Source: Alphaproteobacteria bacterium (GTDB lineage: Bacteria > Pseudomonadota > Alphaproteobacteria > Micavibrionales > UBA2020). Taken from it: a stretch of 64,000 bases of DNA. Positions 36,227-48,265 of the stretch are shown one piece after another. A program made the position numbers and the translations under genes. The stretch is taken from positions 4,614-68,613 of the forward strand of contig JBGGMV010000037.1 of the NCBI GenBank assembly GCA_041287865.1, in the 5' to 3' direction. Every line of letters begins with the position of its first letter. Positions within the stretch are counted from its first letter, which is position 1. The notes beneath the pieces are model-generated. The model saw only the letters and a list, made by a program, of their open reading frames with translations, did not search any database and was not told the DNA's origin.

Positions 36227-36934
36227 ATGGAAAAACCCAAGCGAAAGCGATCGCTTACAAGGAAATTCACCATGGCCGTGCTGGGCCTGACGGCCACGGC
36301 AGCCTGCCTTTACGGCGCATGGTTCGGGGCCTTCTATGCCGGACGCGGCGATACGCTGACGCCAAGCGAGACATCCGCCGTCACCTCCATCTTCGGCGAT
36401 GAAATCAACGCCAATGCGATCCGCAAGCACGAACGCTCCGAGGCCAGCGCGACGCATCTTTTCCGCTGGGTCGACGGCATGGTGCCGCCGCCCTTCAGCC
36501 ATATCGATTTCTTCGGCCCCGATGCGCATGCGCGCGATTACACGCGCGAAGATAAACGGCTTTTCTCGCTGTTTATGCACGAAGTTACGCATGCATGGCA
36601 GGGCCAGAACTTCAACTTCTCGCGCCACAATGTGGGCCAGTATGCCTATAGCCTGAAAGAAGGCTCCAAATTCTCCGACTTCGGCACCGAGCAGCAGGCC
36701 GATATCATCAGCGATTACGCCGGCACCTTCATGCATCAATCCAGCATCGGGAAGGAGCGCAGCCCAGAAGATATATTGTTAAGGGATGTCGTCGAAACCC
36801 GCTTCCCCAGTGCGCGTGACACCCGCCTGTCGATGGAGGCGGGCCGTATGGCCGCCTTCCGCAACGAGGCCCAGCCTGTCCGCGTGGCCCAGCCCACGCC
36901 CACCCCCCCGCCCTCCATCCCCAAAACCGCCTGA
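36227..36934 (+). CDS. Membrane-anchored HExxHxxQ (DUF4157-like zincin motif) protein, paralogue 1
   Basis: 235 aa with an N-terminal TM (FTMAVLGLTATAACLYGAWFGAFYA). Motifs IFGDEINANAIRKH ... IDFFGPDAHARDY ... LFMHEVTHAWQGQN. Confidence 0.7.
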   Translation: MEKPKRKRSLTRKFTMAVLGLTATAACLYGAWFGAFYAGRGDTLTPSETSAVTSIFGDEINANAIRKHERSEASATHLFRWVDGMVPPPFSHIDFFGPDAHARDYTREDKRLFSLFMHEVTHAWQGQNFNFSRHNVGQYAYSLKEGSKFSDFGTEQQADIISDYAGTFMHQSSIGKERSPEDILLRDVVETRFPSARDTRLSMEAGRMAAFRNEAQPVRVAQPTPTPPPSIPKTA

Positions 36935-37037: not shown

Positions 37038-37691
37038 ATGGCGGAACGCCAGAAGAAATCGTTGATTCGCAAATTTGCGACAGCTGCGGCGAAAACCGTC
37101 GCCGTGGCGGCGCTCGCCTATGGCGCGTGGTTCGGCGCGTTTTACGCAGGCCGCGGCGAGACGCTGACGAAGGGCGAGACGCAGGCGGTCGAAGGCATTT
37201 TCGGCGACCAGCTGGATGCTTCCATGATCCGCAAGCACTTCCGCAACCAGAGCAGCGTCACGCATGTGATGGGCAATACGCGCGGCATGGTGATGCCGCC
37301 CTTCAGCCATATCGACTTCTTCGGGCCCGACGCGCAGTCGAAAGACTACAGCAAAGAAGGCATCGGCAAATTCGGCCTCTTCATGCATGAAGTCACGCAT
37401 ACATGGCAGGGCCAGAACCTGAAATTTTCCACGAAAGCCTTCCGCCGCTACGACTACGATTACATGCTGCGCCCCACGTCGCAGTTCAGGGATTTCGGCA
37501 CGGAACAGCAGGCGGAGATTGTCGAGAATTACGCCGAGCGCTGGATACACCGCGACGGCATCATAGAGCCGCGCACGGCGAAAGACACGCTGGTCATGAA
37601 TGTGGTCGAAAGACAATTCCCGCGCGCAAAGGCAACGCGCGACAGCGTCTGGCGCGCAAACGCGCCAAAAGCGAATACCCTCAAAACCTGA
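37038..37691 (+). CDS. Membrane-anchored HExxHxxQ (DUF4157-like zincin motif) protein, paralogue 2
   Basis: 217 aa, collinear with paralogue 1: IFGDQLDASMIRKH ... IDFFGPDAQSKDY ... LFMHEVTHTWQGQN. Confidence 0.7.
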   Translation: MAERQKKSLIRKFATAAAKTVAVAALAYGAWFGAFYAGRGETLTKGETQAVEGIFGDQLDASMIRKHFRNQSSVTHVMGNTRGMVMPPFSHIDFFGPDAQSKDYSKEGIGKFGLFMHEVTHTWQGQNLKFSTKAFRRYDYDYMLRPTSQFRDFGTEQQAEIVENYAERWIHRDGIIEPRTAKDTLVMNVVERQFPRAKATRDSVWRANAPKANTLKT

Positions 37692-37694
37692 GAA

Positions 37695-38372
37695 TTAATA
37701 GTTCGGCTTAATTTTCTTGACCGGCAGGTCGGCGGCGACGGGTTCGTCGTCGATCATCTCGATCATGCCGTTTTCGGTCATCGAGAAGCGCGCGGAGAAA
37801 AGCGCGTTGCCGTAGAGAACCATGGCCGACGCCTCGTGCGCACCTTCGGCCGAGCGGCCTTCGAAAGCGGCGGGGCGGATCGCGTCCTCGATCACCTTGC
37901 GGGTGTTCGGGTCCAGTTTCGCCTGGTCGATCGCGGGGTGGTTGATGTCTTCCACGATCAGGAAGGGCCCTTCGTCGCCATGGACGAAGTAGCAGAAGAA
38001 ACGCAGGTATTCGAGGTTGTTGGCGTCGGTCACCTTGATCGGATCGGCTTCGTTCGCGTCATGGATGGGAGCAGACGAACCGTCGAGCAGGAACATGCGG
38101 CCCTGTTTGGCCAAAAACCAGAAGGGGCCGGTGCCGGCGGACCAGGCGCTGTCGTTCACGCGCACAAGGCCGATCGAGGTGTAGAAGGGCAGCTGGCACC
38201 ACTCGGCGGTGCCGGTGGCGGCGGAGGCGTTATGCTTGCCCTGGATGGGGTTGACCAGCTTGAGGAAGGGCTCGAGCTGAGCGCCGCTGACCTTTTGCCA
38301 GTTATACTGATCGAACATCGTATTTGGAGCCTTTCCAGAAGGTTGCTGTGCAGCCTGTGTTGATGTTGTCAT
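37695..38372 (-). CDS. Hypothetical protein (225 aa)
   Basis: Intact ORF with normal GC and no overlapping better-supported gene. It is convergent with the HExxH pair, and the stops are 3 nt apart. No family recognised. Confidence 0.55.
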   Translation of the reverse strand: MTTSTQAAQQPSGKAPNTMFDQYNWQKVSGAQLEPFLKLVNPIQGKHNASAATGTAEWCQLPFYTSIGLVRVNDSAWSAGTGPFWFLAKQGRMFLLDGSSAPIHDANEADPIKVTDANNLEYLRFFCYFVHGDEGPFLIVEDINHPAIDQAKLDPNTRKVIEDAIRPAAFEGRSAEGAHEASAMVLYGNALFSARFSMTENGMIEMIDDEPVAADLPVKKIKPNY

Positions 38373-40555: not shown

Positions 40556-40584
40556 TTGACATAAACAAACCGCAGGTGCTAGAA
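40556..40584 (+). promoter_or_regulatory. Candidate sigma-70-type promoter upstream of the 437-aa gene
   Basis: TTGACA (40556-40561), a 17-nt spacer, then CTAGAA. The -35 sits inside the 12-mer TATATTGACATA, which also occurs at 30303-30314. Confidence 0.3.
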
Positions 40585-40647
40585 CGGGGACACCTTTTCA
40601 AGCAACTGCGGGCGGTTTAACGCCTGCCATTCACAGCGGGTGATCCC

Positions 40648-41961
40648 ATGGCCGACATCAAAGACCTCGAATTCAAAGACACAGGCCTGCCCAACGATCC
40701 CGCCGTTTTCCGCGCCTACCGTCTCTACCAGAAAAACGCCGAAAGCTATGCGGATGAATCCGGCCTGCCGCAGGATTTCCCGCTGAAGGTCGCGCGCGCC
40801 GTGCGCGCCGCTTCGGGCGACGCCAACACGACCGCGCTGGCGCTGCTGATGTCCATCCCCGCCCCCGCCTATAGCGCGGTTGAAAAACAATTCGGCGCCG
40901 ACACCGTGAAGCAGCTGGACACAGCATGGAGCCATGAGCGCACCGGCTTCGCCTATATCGAGGACGCGCCGCCCGCGATCAAGGCGCTTGCCGCGGCTTC
41001 CGCCGCCGTCGCCTTCGACAATTTCATCGAAGCCGCTGCAACAGTTTCCGAGAAATTATTGCGCGTACCCGCAAAAGCAGATTTGAAAAAAGCAGCCCCG
41101 CAGCTGGTGCTGCCCGAACCCCGCGTCTATGAAATGCTGGCCGGCCGCCTTGAGGGCGAGGCTGCCGTGGCCTACGACCAGAAATTCGCCGCATATCAAA
41201 ACGCTTACGAAAGCTACCGTCAGGAGCTGGATTTCGTCGGCATCGTCGTGCCCAAGAAAGACGCGGCAAAGCCTGAAAATCCGGCCTTCGATGAAACCGG
41301 CCTGATGGAAGACCCGACGGTGAAGGCGGCTTACGAGCTGGTGACGCGTCACCCCGGCGCAAGCCCGCGCACCGTGAACGACGCCGTGCTTTTTGGCAAG
41401 CTGCTGGGCAGCTTCGCGCCCGAAGAAAACCCCTCGGTCATCGCCGCCGGCATCATGCAGGCAGGGCTACAGGGCATCACGCGCGACGATATCGGCTTTT
41501 TGCAAAAACGTCTGGGCGGCGAAGTCGGCCAGATCATGGAAACCTTCAACGTGCGCGACGCGCTGATGCGCGACCGCTCCGCCCTCGACAAATGCCCCGA
41601 CGAATTCCGCCAGATGGCGCTGGCCTATGGCATCGTGATGATGGACAACGCCAAGCAAAGCGGCGAACGCGTGCTGAAGCAATTGAAGGAAGGCGCCGAC
41701 GTCATCCCCGAAGACGCCTACAAGGAAATCAAGCTGATCGGCTTCAAGCCGCTCTTCGCGCTTGCCATGGCCATGCCGATGATCATGGAACCGCTCCGTG
41801 GCCGCACCGGCGCACCCGCGCTGGAAAAAGCGTTCGAGGAAGAACATTCCCGCCTGCAACATTTCGTGCAGCAGAACATGCCCGAAATGCCCGACCTGAA
41901 GGCGCTGCCGACGCAAGTGATGGCGGCAGGACCGCGCCGCCGCCCGCGCATCGGGATGTAA
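40648..41961 (+). CDS. Hypothetical internally duplicated protein (437 aa), paralogue of 42368-43711
   Basis: Two repeats, each starting (D/E)TGL..DP.V..AY. The repeats faintly resemble a RelA/SpoT HD domain whose H and D residues are replaced (ALALLMSIP..VEKQFGADTVKQL). The C-terminus is basic. Confidence 0.7.
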   Translation: MADIKDLEFKDTGLPNDPAVFRAYRLYQKNAESYADESGLPQDFPLKVARAVRAASGDANTTALALLMSIPAPAYSAVEKQFGADTVKQLDTAWSHERTGFAYIEDAPPAIKALAAASAAVAFDNFIEAAATVSEKLLRVPAKADLKKAAPQLVLPEPRVYEMLAGRLEGEAAVAYDQKFAAYQNAYESYRQELDFVGIVVPKKDAAKPENPAFDETGLMEDPTVKAAYELVTRHPGASPRTVNDAVLFGKLLGSFAPEENPSVIAAGIMQAGLQGITRDDIGFLQKRLGGEVGQIMETFNVRDALMRDRSALDKCPDEFRQMALAYGIVMMDNAKQSGERVLKQLKEGADVIPEDAYKEIKLIGFKPLFALAMAMPMIMEPLRGRTGAPALEKAFEEEHSRLQHFVQQNMPEMPDLKALPTQVMAAGPRRRPRIGM

Positions 41962-41998
41962 TTCGGACTTAAATTGCCATAATCATATTCCCATAGCA

Positions 41999-42027
41999 TT
42001 GACGCTCCCTGTAGGGGGTGCTAAAAA
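41999..42027 (+). promoter_or_regulatory. Candidate promoter upstream of the small ORF
   Basis: TTGACG (41999-42004), a 17-nt spacer, then TAAAAA (42022-42027). Confidence 0.3.
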
Positions 42028-42058
42028 CGATTCCACTCATTTTTATGGAATCGCAACT

Positions 42059-42355
42059 ATGTCGCTCAAAGAAGACCTTATGAATTCCCCCAAGCTGGAC
42101 GCGCGCCTCAGGGCGAGCCTCGCCTTCCTTGATGATGCGACCGATCCGGCGGCTCCCCTCTTCAGCCTTTTCGTGAAGGTGAGCGGCACGGGCGCGCTCG
42201 ATACGAAACAAGTCCATGTGAACATCATCGCCGGCGATATCGGCACGGCGCATAACGTCTCGCTGAACGGCCTCAAGGAACTGGTCGACAATCCTCGCGT
42301 CAATTACCTGCAGGGCAGCACCAAGATGCGTCCCAACAACGGCCCCCGCTTTTAA
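42059..42355 (+). CDS. Small hypothetical protein (98 aa; start uncertain)
   Basis: In-frame part of ORF 41999-42355, starting at MSLKEDLM downstream of the candidate promoter. It lies between the two paralogues. No family recognised. Confidence 0.45.
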   Translation: MSLKEDLMNSPKLDARLRASLAFLDDATDPAAPLFSLFVKVSGTGALDTKQVHVNIIAGDIGTAHNVSLNGLKELVDNPRVNYLQGSTKMRPNNGPRF

Positions 42356-42367
42356 GGAGCAATCCCC

Positions 42368-43711
42368 ATGACCGATTACCGCGAAACAGGCCTGCCGCAG
42401 GACCCGACCGTTTTCAGGGCCTTCAAGACCTACGAGAAAAACGCGAAAGACGCCGCCGCCGAACTGGGCCTGTCGGAAGATTTCCCCGTGCGCGTGGCGC
42501 AGGCGATCAATACGACCATGGCAGCCGACAGCACGCTGCTATCTGCCGCGCTTCTTTCCGTCGTGCCGCGCCCGTCGTGGGATATCATCGAGAAAAACTT
42601 CGGCAAGGCCACGACCGCCCTGATGGAAGAAGCCGACCTGCACAATCGCACCGGATACGCCTATATCGACCAGGCGTCGGAGCCCGTGAAGGCGATCGCG
42701 CTGGCATCGGCCATCGCTGCTTTCAGCGAATTCAAGACGATTTCCGAAGGCATCGAGCAGGCGGTGACGAAAGTCATCAGCGGGCAGGCGCCGATGGAAT
42801 CGCTGCAGCAGAAAATGATGATGATGCCGAACGTGGAGGTCTATGCGCACCTGCAAAAGGCCCTCTCGGACAAGAGCGGCTCGCCCGCACTGGAAGCGCT
42901 GTTCCAGGAACGTTTCGACGCTTTCCGCGAAGCGCGCGAAGCACATAACGAAAAACTGGCCGAGATGGGCATCGTCTTCACCATGCCGGGCCAGCCGATG
43001 CCGGGCATGGCATCCGCCGAACTCCGCTTCCCCGCGTTTGAGGACACCGGCCTGCTGGACGACGCCAAGGTGCGCGCCGTTTACGAGGTCATCACCAACC
43101 ACCCCCGCGTTCAGCCCGATGATTTCGAGGGCGCGCTGGCGGCCGCGAAAATGCTGTCGGAACTGCCCGCATCGAAAAACCCGACCGCGATTGCCGGCGC
43201 TTTGCTTGATGTCGGCCTGCGTTCGCTCGGCCCCGACGACCATCAGTTCCTGAAAACGAAAATCGACTGGGATGTGCTGGAACTGCTCTCCGCCCATAGC
43301 GTGCGCGACCCGCTCACCCCTGCCGCGCTGAAAGCAGCGCCGGAGGAATTCCAGCAGATCGTGATCGCCAATGCGACAGCTGCCCTCGGCCACGCCAAGG
43401 AAGGCATCAAGGGCGCTCTTGAATCACTCGACCAGCAGGATTTTGCCATGCCGGAAGAAATGACCATGCCGCCCGAGCTGAAAATGATGATGAAGATGCA
43501 GGCCTTGCAGCAGCTCGATATGCTGGCCGCAATGTCGCGCCACATGATCGGCCCGGTGCTGGGCCACACGGCTGCGCCCGAGCTTGAAAAAGCCTACGAG
43601 CAGAGCCTGAAAGACGCGCAGCAATTCATCCGCGACAACGCGCCGAAGCAGCAAAAACTGCTGCCCCCGCCGCCCCGCAAAAAGCCCGGCAACGATTTCA
43701 CGTTTGACTGA
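42368..43711 (+). CDS. Hypothetical internally duplicated protein (447 aa), paralogue of 40648-41961
   Basis: Collinear with the 437-aa protein: ETGLPQDPTVFRAFKTYEKNA...; FEDTGLLDDAKVRAVYEVITNHP... Met-rich stretches (KMMMMP, LKMMMKMQ). Basic C-terminus PPPPRKKPGNDFTFD. Confidence 0.7.
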   Translation: MTDYRETGLPQDPTVFRAFKTYEKNAKDAAAELGLSEDFPVRVAQAINTTMAADSTLLSAALLSVVPRPSWDIIEKNFGKATTALMEEADLHNRTGYAYIDQASEPVKAIALASAIAAFSEFKTISEGIEQAVTKVISGQAPMESLQQKMMMMPNVEVYAHLQKALSDKSGSPALEALFQERFDAFREAREAHNEKLAEMGIVFTMPGQPMPGMASAELRFPAFEDTGLLDDAKVRAVYEVITNHPRVQPDDFEGALAAAKMLSELPASKNPTAIAGALLDVGLRSLGPDDHQFLKTKIDWDVLELLSAHSVRDPLTPAALKAAPEEFQQIVIANATAALGHAKEGIKGALESLDQQDFAMPEEMTMPPELKMMMKMQALQQLDMLAAMSRHMIGPVLGHTAAPELEKAYEQSLKDAQQFIRDNAPKQQKLLPPPPRKKPGNDFTFD

Positions 43712-44248
43712 TTAGTCGAGCTTCTTGAGGTTTTGTTCCGAGAAGGCGCAAGTGATCGACGCGCCGCGCACCAGTTCGGGCACATCGAAGGTGCGCTTCA
43801 GCCCCGCCGCCAGGTCGTCGTCCAGCGCGTAAAGGCTGGTGCAGGCGATACGCGCATCAGGCGGGCCTTCCACCACCGGGCAGAAGATGATTTTTTGCCC
43901 TTCCTTGTCGAACAATCCCTGCATCTGCGTGACGCCGCGCCGGTTGTTCTCGCGCGTCAGGGTGATATTTACGCGGCTGCCCGCAGGGATCGAGAATCCG
44001 GTTTCTTCAAAAGGTGCCCAGGCTTTGCCGAAAAGCGCCGTGCCGCGGCCCGCGCGGCAGATCAGGCGCGGGGCCGCGCCCGTAGGGGCCGCCAGCGCCG
44101 CCACTTCGCTATCCAGCGGGTGAAATTGCTGCTGGGTGCCGCCCGGCCACGACAGGCTGGGCATGCTCCAGCCGCCGCCCGCGCAGGCCGACAGCAGCAG
44201 GCAGGCCACAAGGGGGGCGAAAGGGGATATTTTACGTGCGAAAGACAT
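43712..44248 (-). CDS. Hypothetical lipoprotein (178 aa)
   Basis: Lipobox LLLSAC at the N-terminus. The stop directly abuts the stop of the 447-aa gene. Confidence 0.6.
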   Translation of the reverse strand: MSFARKISPFAPLVACLLLSACAGGGWSMPSLSWPGGTQQQFHPLDSEVAALAAPTGAAPRLICRAGRGTALFGKAWAPFEETGFSIPAGSRVNITLTRENNRRGVTQMQGLFDKEGQKIIFCPVVEGPPDARIACTSLYALDDDLAAGLKRTFDVPELVRGASITCAFSEQNLKKLD

Positions 44249-46204: not shown

Positions 46205-46519
46205 TTACCAGCTCCCCGGCCTGCGCGGCGGCTTGAAGATCCAGAAATTGCGGAGCAGGAACATGACGGTCAGGAAAGTGATTTCGATGCCGAGACCGGC
46301 GATGGCGATCAGCGGCAGGCGCCATTTTTCGTAGGCGGCGGGGCCGAAGATGACCTTGACGTTGAAGGCAGCCGCTGCCGAGACCATCAGGCAGGCCGCC
46401 ATCACCGACCAGTTGAAGATCGACAGCGCGCGCTTGTTCGCCCATTCGGGCTGGAAGGAAAAGAAGGCCCAGGCCACAAAGACGCCAAGACAGATGAGCA
46501 GCCCTACAAGCGGACCCAT
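46205..46519 (-). CDS. Small membrane protein (104 aa, 3 TM helices)
   Basis: Hydrophobic ORF packed tightly upstream of pyrE. No family recognised. Confidence 0.5.
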   Translation of the reverse strand: MGPLVGLLICLGVFVAWAFFSFQPEWANKRALSIFNWSVMAACLMVSAAAAFNVKVIFGPAAYEKWRLPLIAIAGLGIEITFLTVMFLLRNFWIFKPPRRPGSW

Positions 46520-47875: not shown

Positions 47876-48265
47876 TTAAGGTTTGGGCGTCGGGCTTGCG
47901 GTAGCGGGTCCGACGCCAATCTTTTTATTGAGCAGCGCGTTGCCCACTTTCGCCACGCCATCGGTCAGCGCGGCGACTGTCGTGGCCGCGACCTTGACCA
48001 CGCAAAGACCCAGTACAATCCCGCCCGATGTCACGGCGGCGCCCGGCAGTATCGCCGTCATGGCGGCGCCGGTGCCGAAAATAAGACCCGCCACGCCAAT
48101 GCCCGTCAGGGCGCGATCGATGATGCGCGCGGCGCGGCCGAACTTGAAGCCGCCGTATTCGGGATTGCCGGCGATGCGGTTGAATTCGTTGCCCAGGGTA
48201 AAGGGACGCTCTGGCGGCGTTGCAGCCCAGTTGAAAGCTTCGCTGACCCAAGACACGATAGACAC
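47876..48265 (-). CDS. Hypothetical Gly/Ala-rich membrane protein (129 aa)
   Basis: ORF with two Gly-rich hydrophobic stretches (GIGVAGLIFGTGAAMTAILPGAAVTSGGIVLGLCVV). No family recognised. A longer ORF on the opposite strand overlaps it, so the coding call is tentative. Confidence 0.4.
   Translation of the reverse strand: MSIVSWVSEAFNWAATPPERPFTLGNEFNRIAGNPEYGGFKFGRAARIIDRALTGIGVAGLIFGTGAAMTAILPGAAVTSGGIVLGLCVVKVAATTVAALTDGVAKVGNALLNKKIGVGPATASPTPKP

Follow-up and report, generated by a model that had tools for sequence, protein, structure and literature searches.

In a 64,000-nucleotide (nt) stretch of a contig from an Alphaproteobacteria bacterium (JBGGMV010000037.1; the whole stretch is called the window below), two neighbouring genes, A and B, encode proteins that are rather probably cytoplasmic, non-catalytic descendants of the RelA/SpoT-type (HD_4) alarmone-hydrolase domain. 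Each protein consists of two modules, which profile comparisons and predicted structures show to be homologous to the HD_4 superfamily, with an all-helical fold like that of Mesh1 and the small alarmone hydrolases (SAHs). A previous reading of the letters alone (the sequence-only reading) had singled out this pair; in the list of open reading frames (ORFs), the pair starts and ends exactly where that reading had placed it. The two genes are laid out as follows (aa, amino acids).

40648-41961, forward strand: gene A, 437 aa (ORF list)
40648-41247, forward strand: N-terminal module of A, about aa 1-200
41272-41892, forward strand: C-terminal module of A, about aa 209-415
C-terminus of A: basic and proline-rich tail, GPRRRPRIGM
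42368-43711, forward strand: gene B, 447 aa (ORF list)
42368-42979, forward strand: N-terminal module of B, aa 1-204
42980-43021, forward strand: disordered linker of B, aa 205-218 (AlphaFold model)
43022-43651, forward strand: C-terminal module of B, aa 219-428
43652-43708, forward strand: disordered tail of B, aa 429-447, with the conserved motif PPRKKPGNDF(S/T)FD (AlphaFold model)

The sequence-only reading had taken A and B for paralogues, and an end-to-end BLASTP alignment (32% identity, 55% positives, E 3e-67) bears this out. It had also seen a second copy of the same module within each protein, and the motifs it cited are found, as F214-DETGLMEDPTVKAAY in A and F224-EDTGLLDDAKVRAVY in B. 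BLASTP between the N- and C-terminal halves of each protein detects the repeat weakly (E 1e-5 to 1e-3), and the self-alignment that had been suggested as a check confirms it at the level of profiles: with half-profiles made from 19 homologues, hhalign aligns 184 columns at a probability of 96.9% (E 1.3e-10). The AlphaFold model of full-length B (predicted local distance difference test, pLDDT, 83.8; predicted template modelling score, pTM, 0.75) is all-helical and contains two similar helix series, with the disordered linker between them and the disordered tail behind. Basic or proline-rich tails had been noted at the C-termini, and they are indeed present; the tail peptide conserved among relatives is PPRKKPGNDFSFD.

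The relation to HD_4 rests on independent lines that agree in one register, of which the Foldseek comparison alone would be weak. At the level of Pfam, B has a sub-threshold match to HD_4 (PF13328; E 7.7e-4, 19.7 bits, residues 41-90 on profile positions 25-75) and A a fainter one, also sub-threshold (E 0.075, 13.2 bits). Sixty-five family members were scanned singly, for Pfam families and for the residues at ligand positions. HD_4 was matched in 23 of them, the best E-value (3.3e-8) being reached by a member other than P0047, the best individually scanned relative, which scores 26.3 bits. These individual matches share one stretch, profile positions 11-84, and no other Pfam family was matched by more than two of the 65 members. 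Neither A, B nor any of the 65 relatives gave a RelA_SpoT, TGS or ACT match in the Pfam scan.

We also aligned each module by hhalign to a Mesh1/Rel profile, built from the human MESH1, fly Mesh1 and Thermus Rel hydrolase-domain sequences of the PDB sequence library. The N-terminal module was aligned with an E-value of 8.6e-7 (90 columns) and the C-terminal one with 2.1e-6 (110 columns); reversed or column-shuffled control templates gave 0.12-0.8. A separate AlphaFold model of the C-terminal module (pLDDT 88.6, pTM 0.85) was compared with the PDB by Foldseek: the top 13 matches were all SAH or Mesh1 chains (probability 0.97-1.00, target template modelling score 0.46-0.65, about 200 columns), after which the probability fell below 0.35. 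With the full-length model, the high-probability matches in the PDB were only Mesh1, small alarmone hydrolases, the RelSeq N-terminal domain and YpgQ. The loose RelA/SpoT hydrolase layout proposed earlier thus stands, the HD_4 matches lying in the very region that had been named, and the comparison of single modules by profile and by Foldseek, which had been recommended, returned HD_4 and Mesh1.

A different picture is obtained for the catalytic residues of this fold. Below, the residues of Mesh1 that form the metal site (H35, H61, D62 and D122, placed by profile alignment) and the ED dyad (E65 and D66) are listed with their counterparts in the four modules.

Mesh1 H35: F39 in the N-terminal and A256 in the C-terminal module of B; F44 in the N-terminal and A246 in the C-terminal module of A
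Mesh1 H61: S64 and D281 in B; M68 and Q271 in A (same order of modules)
Mesh1 D62: V65 and V282 in B; S69 and A272 in A
Mesh1 E65: deleted and R285 in B; not mapped and Q275 in A
Mesh1 D66: deleted and S286 in B; not mapped and G276 in A
Mesh1 D122: S114 and N335 in B; S118 and Y327 in A

The replacement of the His and Asp ligands, already suspected from the letters, is therefore real: FP stands for HP and AALLSV for AALLHD, and the FG motif is kept. A complete H..HD..D metal tetrad occurs in none of the 65 members, in either module, and the former catalytic columns are among the most variable of the family. Vestiges of the old site are visible in a few members, namely AALLHD in the N-terminal module of P0047 and HP in P0039, P0041 and P0045. 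Because the tetrad is incomplete and the ED dyad replaced or deleted, A and B are, on their sequences, pseudo-hydrolases, to which the known mechanism of (p)ppGpp hydrolysis is no longer available. Most of the positions that the whole family conserves are occupied by hydrophobic or small residues of the core; the motif F-x-x-T-G-L-P-x-D at the start of each module is also conserved, as is a tail proline (98%). Such a pattern in the alignments marks a pseudoenzyme family in which fold and surfaces, rather than chemistry, have been preserved.

The family appears to be tiny, unannotated and restricted to Micavibrio-like Alphaproteobacteria. An exhaustive profile search among 1.84 billion proteins retrieved 81 clusters at 50% identity. 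Every named relative is annotated 'hypothetical protein', and the source records are metagenome-assembled genomes that bear the label Alphaproteobacteria bacterium or Micavibrio sp. Genome phylogeny assigns Micavibrio, an obligate epibiotic predator, to a deep position within the Alphaproteobacteria (PMC3189940); NCBI taxonomy keeps it under Bdellovibrionota. The remark that no family could be named holds as well, as no Pfam, NCBIfam or PADLOC model covers A or B and all the source names are 'hypothetical protein'. Two matches met in these searches were discarded: the sole match of the PDB sequence searches, V-ATPase subunit G, has an E-value of 0.73 and was taken as chance, and an NCBIfam WXG100/ESAT-6 match to A (E 0.0057, 16.8 bits against a cut-off of 44.85, over 35 residues) was considered a coiled-helix artefact.

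Twelve loci, the window included, are long enough to hold both genes (the others are L001, L003, L004, L006 and L010-L016). Two tandem copies are present in 11 of the 12, L014 having only the downstream copy nearby. The long loci share one gene order: HU, FAD monooxygenase, M20 peptidase (reverse strand), FGase (forward), A, B, a lipoprotein gene (reverse), M50/CBS protease, PilZ, rpmI-rplT and radA. In a neighbour-joining tree, upstream and downstream copies form two clades of mirrored topology, which implies that the tandem duplication is old and that both copies were maintained. The upstream, A-type copies have the longer branches, and A thus appears as the faster-evolving upstream paralogue. 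The divergent two-module members P0047 and P0083 are single-copy genes in other contexts, so that the two-module architecture should be older than the A/B duplication.

Some of the contexts met in this survey may be worth recording. P0047, whose N-terminal module still has its HD dyad, adjoins dnaN (L020), and P0083 (L021/L022) adjoins malic enzyme and NAD-salvage genes, a BrnT toxin and a Y1 transposase being encoded close by. L016 (DASPMW010000180.1) is labelled 'Patescibacteria group bacterium' and carries the Micavibrio-like synteny of A, B and lipoprotein gene; it is probably a mis-binned contig. A giant candidate relative of 2458 aa, P0097, which the exhaustive search had matched in seven stretches, turned out to be a Big_9/cadherin adhesin and was rejected as a false positive.

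The question arises as to what such proteins do. A and B are soluble, acidic proteins by calculation (isoelectric point, pI, 5.0-5.3); a strongly hydrophobic segment is absent and no signal peptide is evident by eye, and we infer a cytoplasmic location. In the history that we favour, the ancestral gene would already have held two fused Mesh1/SAH-like helical domains of about 200 residues. This two-module gene would then have been duplicated in tandem, early in the history of a Micavibrio-like lineage of Alphaproteobacteria, and the two copies would have stayed adjacent from then on, each with a near-consensus housekeeping-type promoter. None of the four domains retains the Mn2+-binding H..HD..D tetrad or the ED dyad. 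As the helical core, the FxxTGLPxD motif and the tail motif are conserved and the catalytic residues are lost, the proteins would act by binding, as scaffold, adaptor or regulator, most likely as a scaffold or a regulator. Their joint retention in tandem suggests that A and B may form a hetero-complex, conceivably one that mimics the dimers of real SAHs, and the former substrate cleft could have been reused for a nucleotide or a partner protein.

Several points weigh against this reading. Neither A nor B attains the Pfam gathering score of 27.2 bits; the Foldseek E-values are weak (0.05-0.2), with a root mean square deviation (rmsd) of 6-8 Å; and the family profile and P0047, the least degenerate member, retrieved nothing useful when searched against the PDB sequences. 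In the C-terminal module of B, two of the former ligand positions are still polar (D281 and N335), and a residual metal or ligand site in this module is conceivable. Finally, the A-B complex is a conjecture.

The likeness to HD_4 might then be a chance similarity of helical bundles, the family being an unrelated all-alpha one. The scores below the Pfam threshold, the Foldseek E-values above 0.01 with their high rmsd, and the empty PDB sequence searches would all fit. However, chance should not make independent lines agree in the same register, with HP, ALLHD, FG and KLAD in order, nor leave vestigial HD or HP in some members; moreover, shuffled and reversed controls fail, and no competing family or fold emerged. 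We therefore regard this as the least probable of the explanations considered. Mesh1 also acts on NADPH, and A and B could in principle still be enzymes, with a new active site or another chemistry on the old fold. The residues D281 and N335 just mentioned would be candidates, 35 of the 65 members have D at the H61 position, and His92, in an HxRTGFAYI motif, is conserved at 71%. Yet the family as a whole shares no conserved set of polar residues, A has Q271 and Y327 where B has D281 and N335, and the catalytic dyad is deleted or replaced, all of which makes retained enzymatic activity highly improbable. It is very unlikely, too, that A and B are secreted or prey-directed effectors with their C-terminal tails as export signals; the sequence-only reading had raised the idea of a lineage-specific effector. 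The relatives are Micavibrio-like, M. aeruginosavorus is an obligate epibiotic predator (PMC3189940), the family is confined to this lineage, and the disordered tails carry a conserved motif. But no signal peptide is evident, RTX/GGXGXD repeats are absent, the GC content is that of the surroundings, the promoters are of housekeeping type, and the stable neighbourhood of housekeeping genes (HU to radA, as listed above) is no genomic island. The effector idea thus found no support; its companion, a regulatory module, is one that we still infer.

A related scenario, the foremost among the more specific ones, sees in A and B non-catalytic receptors or buffers dedicated to an alarmone, be it (p)ppGpp or a similar one; the dead cleft would still bind the nucleotide and relay starvation or prey signals, for instance in the choice between attack and attachment. 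Ancestry from an alarmone-hydrolase domain speaks for it, together with the conservation of the helices flanking the cleft (in the motifs ALL and FG and in the A of KLAD) and the retention of both copies, with all four domains, over long evolution. We nevertheless think it unlikely: the positions lining the former active site vary more than most in the family, no basic cluster for phosphates is evident where conservation reaches 60%, and literature searches on Micavibrio and ppGpp, and on pseudo-hydrolase SAHs, yielded nothing relevant. Quite unlikely, and still less to be expected, is a bolder form in which an A-B complex of four dead domains is an alarmone or nucleotide receptor, or a regulator of a real SpoT/Rel, that controls the switch of the predators between attack and feeding. 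If this were true, it would be the first case of a pseudo-SAH that signals as a stand-alone protein.

The preferred reading, that of binding proteins derived from a hydrolase domain, can be set beside known systems. SAHs (Mesh1, PaSAH, Leptospira SAH and TdActApo2, which belong to HD_4 and the RelA/SpoT homologue (RSH) superfamily) share with A and B the all-helical domain of about 180-200 residues and the collinear order of motifs, x-P-x-x-V-A, A-L-L-x-x, F-G and the L-A of KLAD. They are described as small single-domain proteins (PMC3153485), whereas A and B have two fused domains in 437 and 447 aa and result from a gene duplication. The Mn2+ site H..HD..D and the ED dyad of SAHs are missing from all four domains of A and B; conversely, the modules of A and B have about 10 extra N-terminal residues (FxxTGLPxD), to which the conserved disordered tail is added. 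RelA is described as carrying 'an inactive HD domain' (PMC3153485), and RelA[hS] and some plant and rickettsial RSHs resemble A and B in having an HD_4 domain that no longer hydrolyses and was nevertheless kept, its presumed role being structural or regulatory. In contrast to A and B, these pseudo-domains are joined to SYNTH and TGS/ACT domains, and no synthetase gene was found among the neighbours of A and B in the window and the compared loci. The rickSpo proteins of Rickettsiales offer a parallel of another kind, an alphaproteobacterial, host- or prey-dependent lineage with its own divergent, HD-only RSH paralogues (PMC3153485); they are set apart by their description as single-domain, numerous and spread with transposable elements, A and B being one fixed, syntenic, two-domain pair. 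A toxSAS with an SAH antitoxin also differs, as it involves an adjacent small alarmone synthetase toxin, and the neighbours of A and B are the M20 peptidase, FGase, lipoprotein and M50/CBS protease genes.

By their alignments, A and B are homologues of the HD_4 superfamily that stand outside every described functional class compared. They are not a new type of system, but a tandem, doubly dead and duplicated form of a known fold. In the 2011 classification of RSHs (PMC3153485), inactive HD domains appear only within long RSH proteins, never as stand-alone proteins. Here, the Mesh1/SAH fold is found fused, duplicated and long retained, in obligate predators with streamlined genomes, with the catalytic residues in none of its four copies; such long retention without catalytic residues points to selection for a non-enzymatic function. 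A role as sensor or regulator is plausible for pseudoenzymes that descend from second-messenger hydrolases. RSH specialists gain a small, defined family, and annotators can give a name to some 80 clusters that are now 'hypothetical protein'.

Upstream of both genes, predicted regulatory elements were found.

40556-40585, forward strand: promoter of A, TTGACA, 18 nt, TG-C-TAGAAC (extended -10 type)
40608-40627, forward strand: GC-rich hairpin in the leader of A, GCGGGCG-GTTTAA-CGCCTGC
41999-42027, forward strand: promoter of B, here also serving the small ORF S described below; TTGACG, 17 nt, TAAAAA preceded by TGC
42028-42053, no strand: perfect palindrome CGATTCCA-N10-TGGAATCG, abutting the -10 element of B

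The -10 region of A, GCTAGAAC, fits GCTANAWC, which we take to be the alphaproteobacterial, Caulobacter-type housekeeping consensus. The pattern TTGAC-N15-20-TG[CG]TA occurs twice in the window, ahead of A and ahead of B, and in six related loci TTGAC(A/G)-N15-20-TG[CG]TA occurs solely ahead of A/B-type genes. Among the loci examined, the promoter motif precedes the A-type gene in 9 of 11 and the B-type gene in 14 of 14, loci without S included; in most loci, a shared CA(C/T)ATA(A/G) box is found shortly before the -35 element, at a distance of a few bases. A and B thus appear each to be under their own conserved, near-consensus predicted promoter; the common motif and box suggest that the promoter was duplicated together with the gene, or that A and B share a regulator.

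The palindrome has one exact match in the window, and when 3 mismatches are allowed, at least one match is found in 33 of 100 shuffled sequences. Because chance matches are this frequent, the case for it rests on conservation: its arms are conserved in L006, L001, L017 and L019, and absent from distant loci. We considered an RNA hairpin and think it less likely, as the left arm abuts the -10 element and most of the palindrome would precede the expected transcription start. The palindrome is more likely a candidate operator for a dimeric regulator, overlapping this start. The hairpin in the leader of A is kept in L006, and in L001 with altered stem bases; the leader hairpins match no Rfam family at gathering score. 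A-type and B-type leaders alike have GC-rich hairpins, those of B being seen in L003, L004 and L010-L016, with sequences that differ by lineage, and in L001, L006 and L003 leader hairpins are followed by T-runs, an attenuator-like arrangement.

Two further genes accompany the pair.

42059 (ATG) to 42355 (stop), forward strand: small ORF S, 98 aa, pI 8.1, between A and B
43712-44248, reverse strand: lipoprotein-like gene, 178 aa, signal peptide and lipobox LLSAC, convergent with B

Three homologues of S were found (L017, 585-887; L019, 101-403; L018, 436-732), with 58-88% identity over the whole length. They lie at the same position in L017 and L019, and in L018 in an unrelated context, ahead of an unrelated small gene. 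Neither L006 and L001 nor any more distant locus contains S. In L006, where B is 93% identical, the A-B gap is 122 nt and S appears in the alignment as a clean insertion of about 290 nt, situated between the promoter and palindrome of B on one side and the Shine-Dalgarno sequence of B on the other. The presence of S varies among relatives whose A and B are 86-93% identical, and its identity in L017 and L019 is 75% and 85%, versus 91% and 86% for the flanking B. This pattern is that of a real, accessory and fast-evolving gene, recently inserted, it would seem, into the leader of B. The promoter once ascribed to S itself, TTGACG-N17-TAAAAA, is the ancestral promoter of B and is present in loci devoid of S; since the same site precedes B in such relatives, S would ride on it. 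A conserved three-gene unit, large-small-large, had also been envisaged, and was rejected: S is missing from most relatives, L006 among them, and the A-B gap measures 122-217 nt, with no ORF, in L006, L001, L003 and L004. S has no Pfam or PADLOC match. Its own tail, STKMRPxxxPR, loosely echoes the proline-rich and basic tails of A and B.

The lipoprotein-like gene does abut the far end of B, as the sequence-only reading had said, in convergent orientation. Homologues lie downstream of B in all the longer loci, with a two-component system intervening in L003 and extra DNA in L004. In our comparison it behaves as a syntenic neighbour of A and B.

The coding sequences of A, B, S and the lipoprotein gene have a GC content at third codon positions of 0.70-0.79, usual for coding sequence in a window of 60% GC, and the local GC content at A and B is like that of their surroundings. 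PADLOC found no defence-system match for any of these four genes, and the scan of the window revealed no tRNA gene and no Rfam family at gathering score. Other conserved neighbours without a Pfam match are located at 36227-36934 and 37038-37691 on the forward strand, and at 37695-38372, 46205-46519 and 47876-48265 on the reverse strand. Their counterparts were called at matching positions in relatives, so that a cluster of unannotated core genes seems to surround A and B. At a greater distance, a very large ORF of 1592 aa (57471-62249, reverse strand) occupies a stretch with a GC content of 0.66, above that of the rest of the window.

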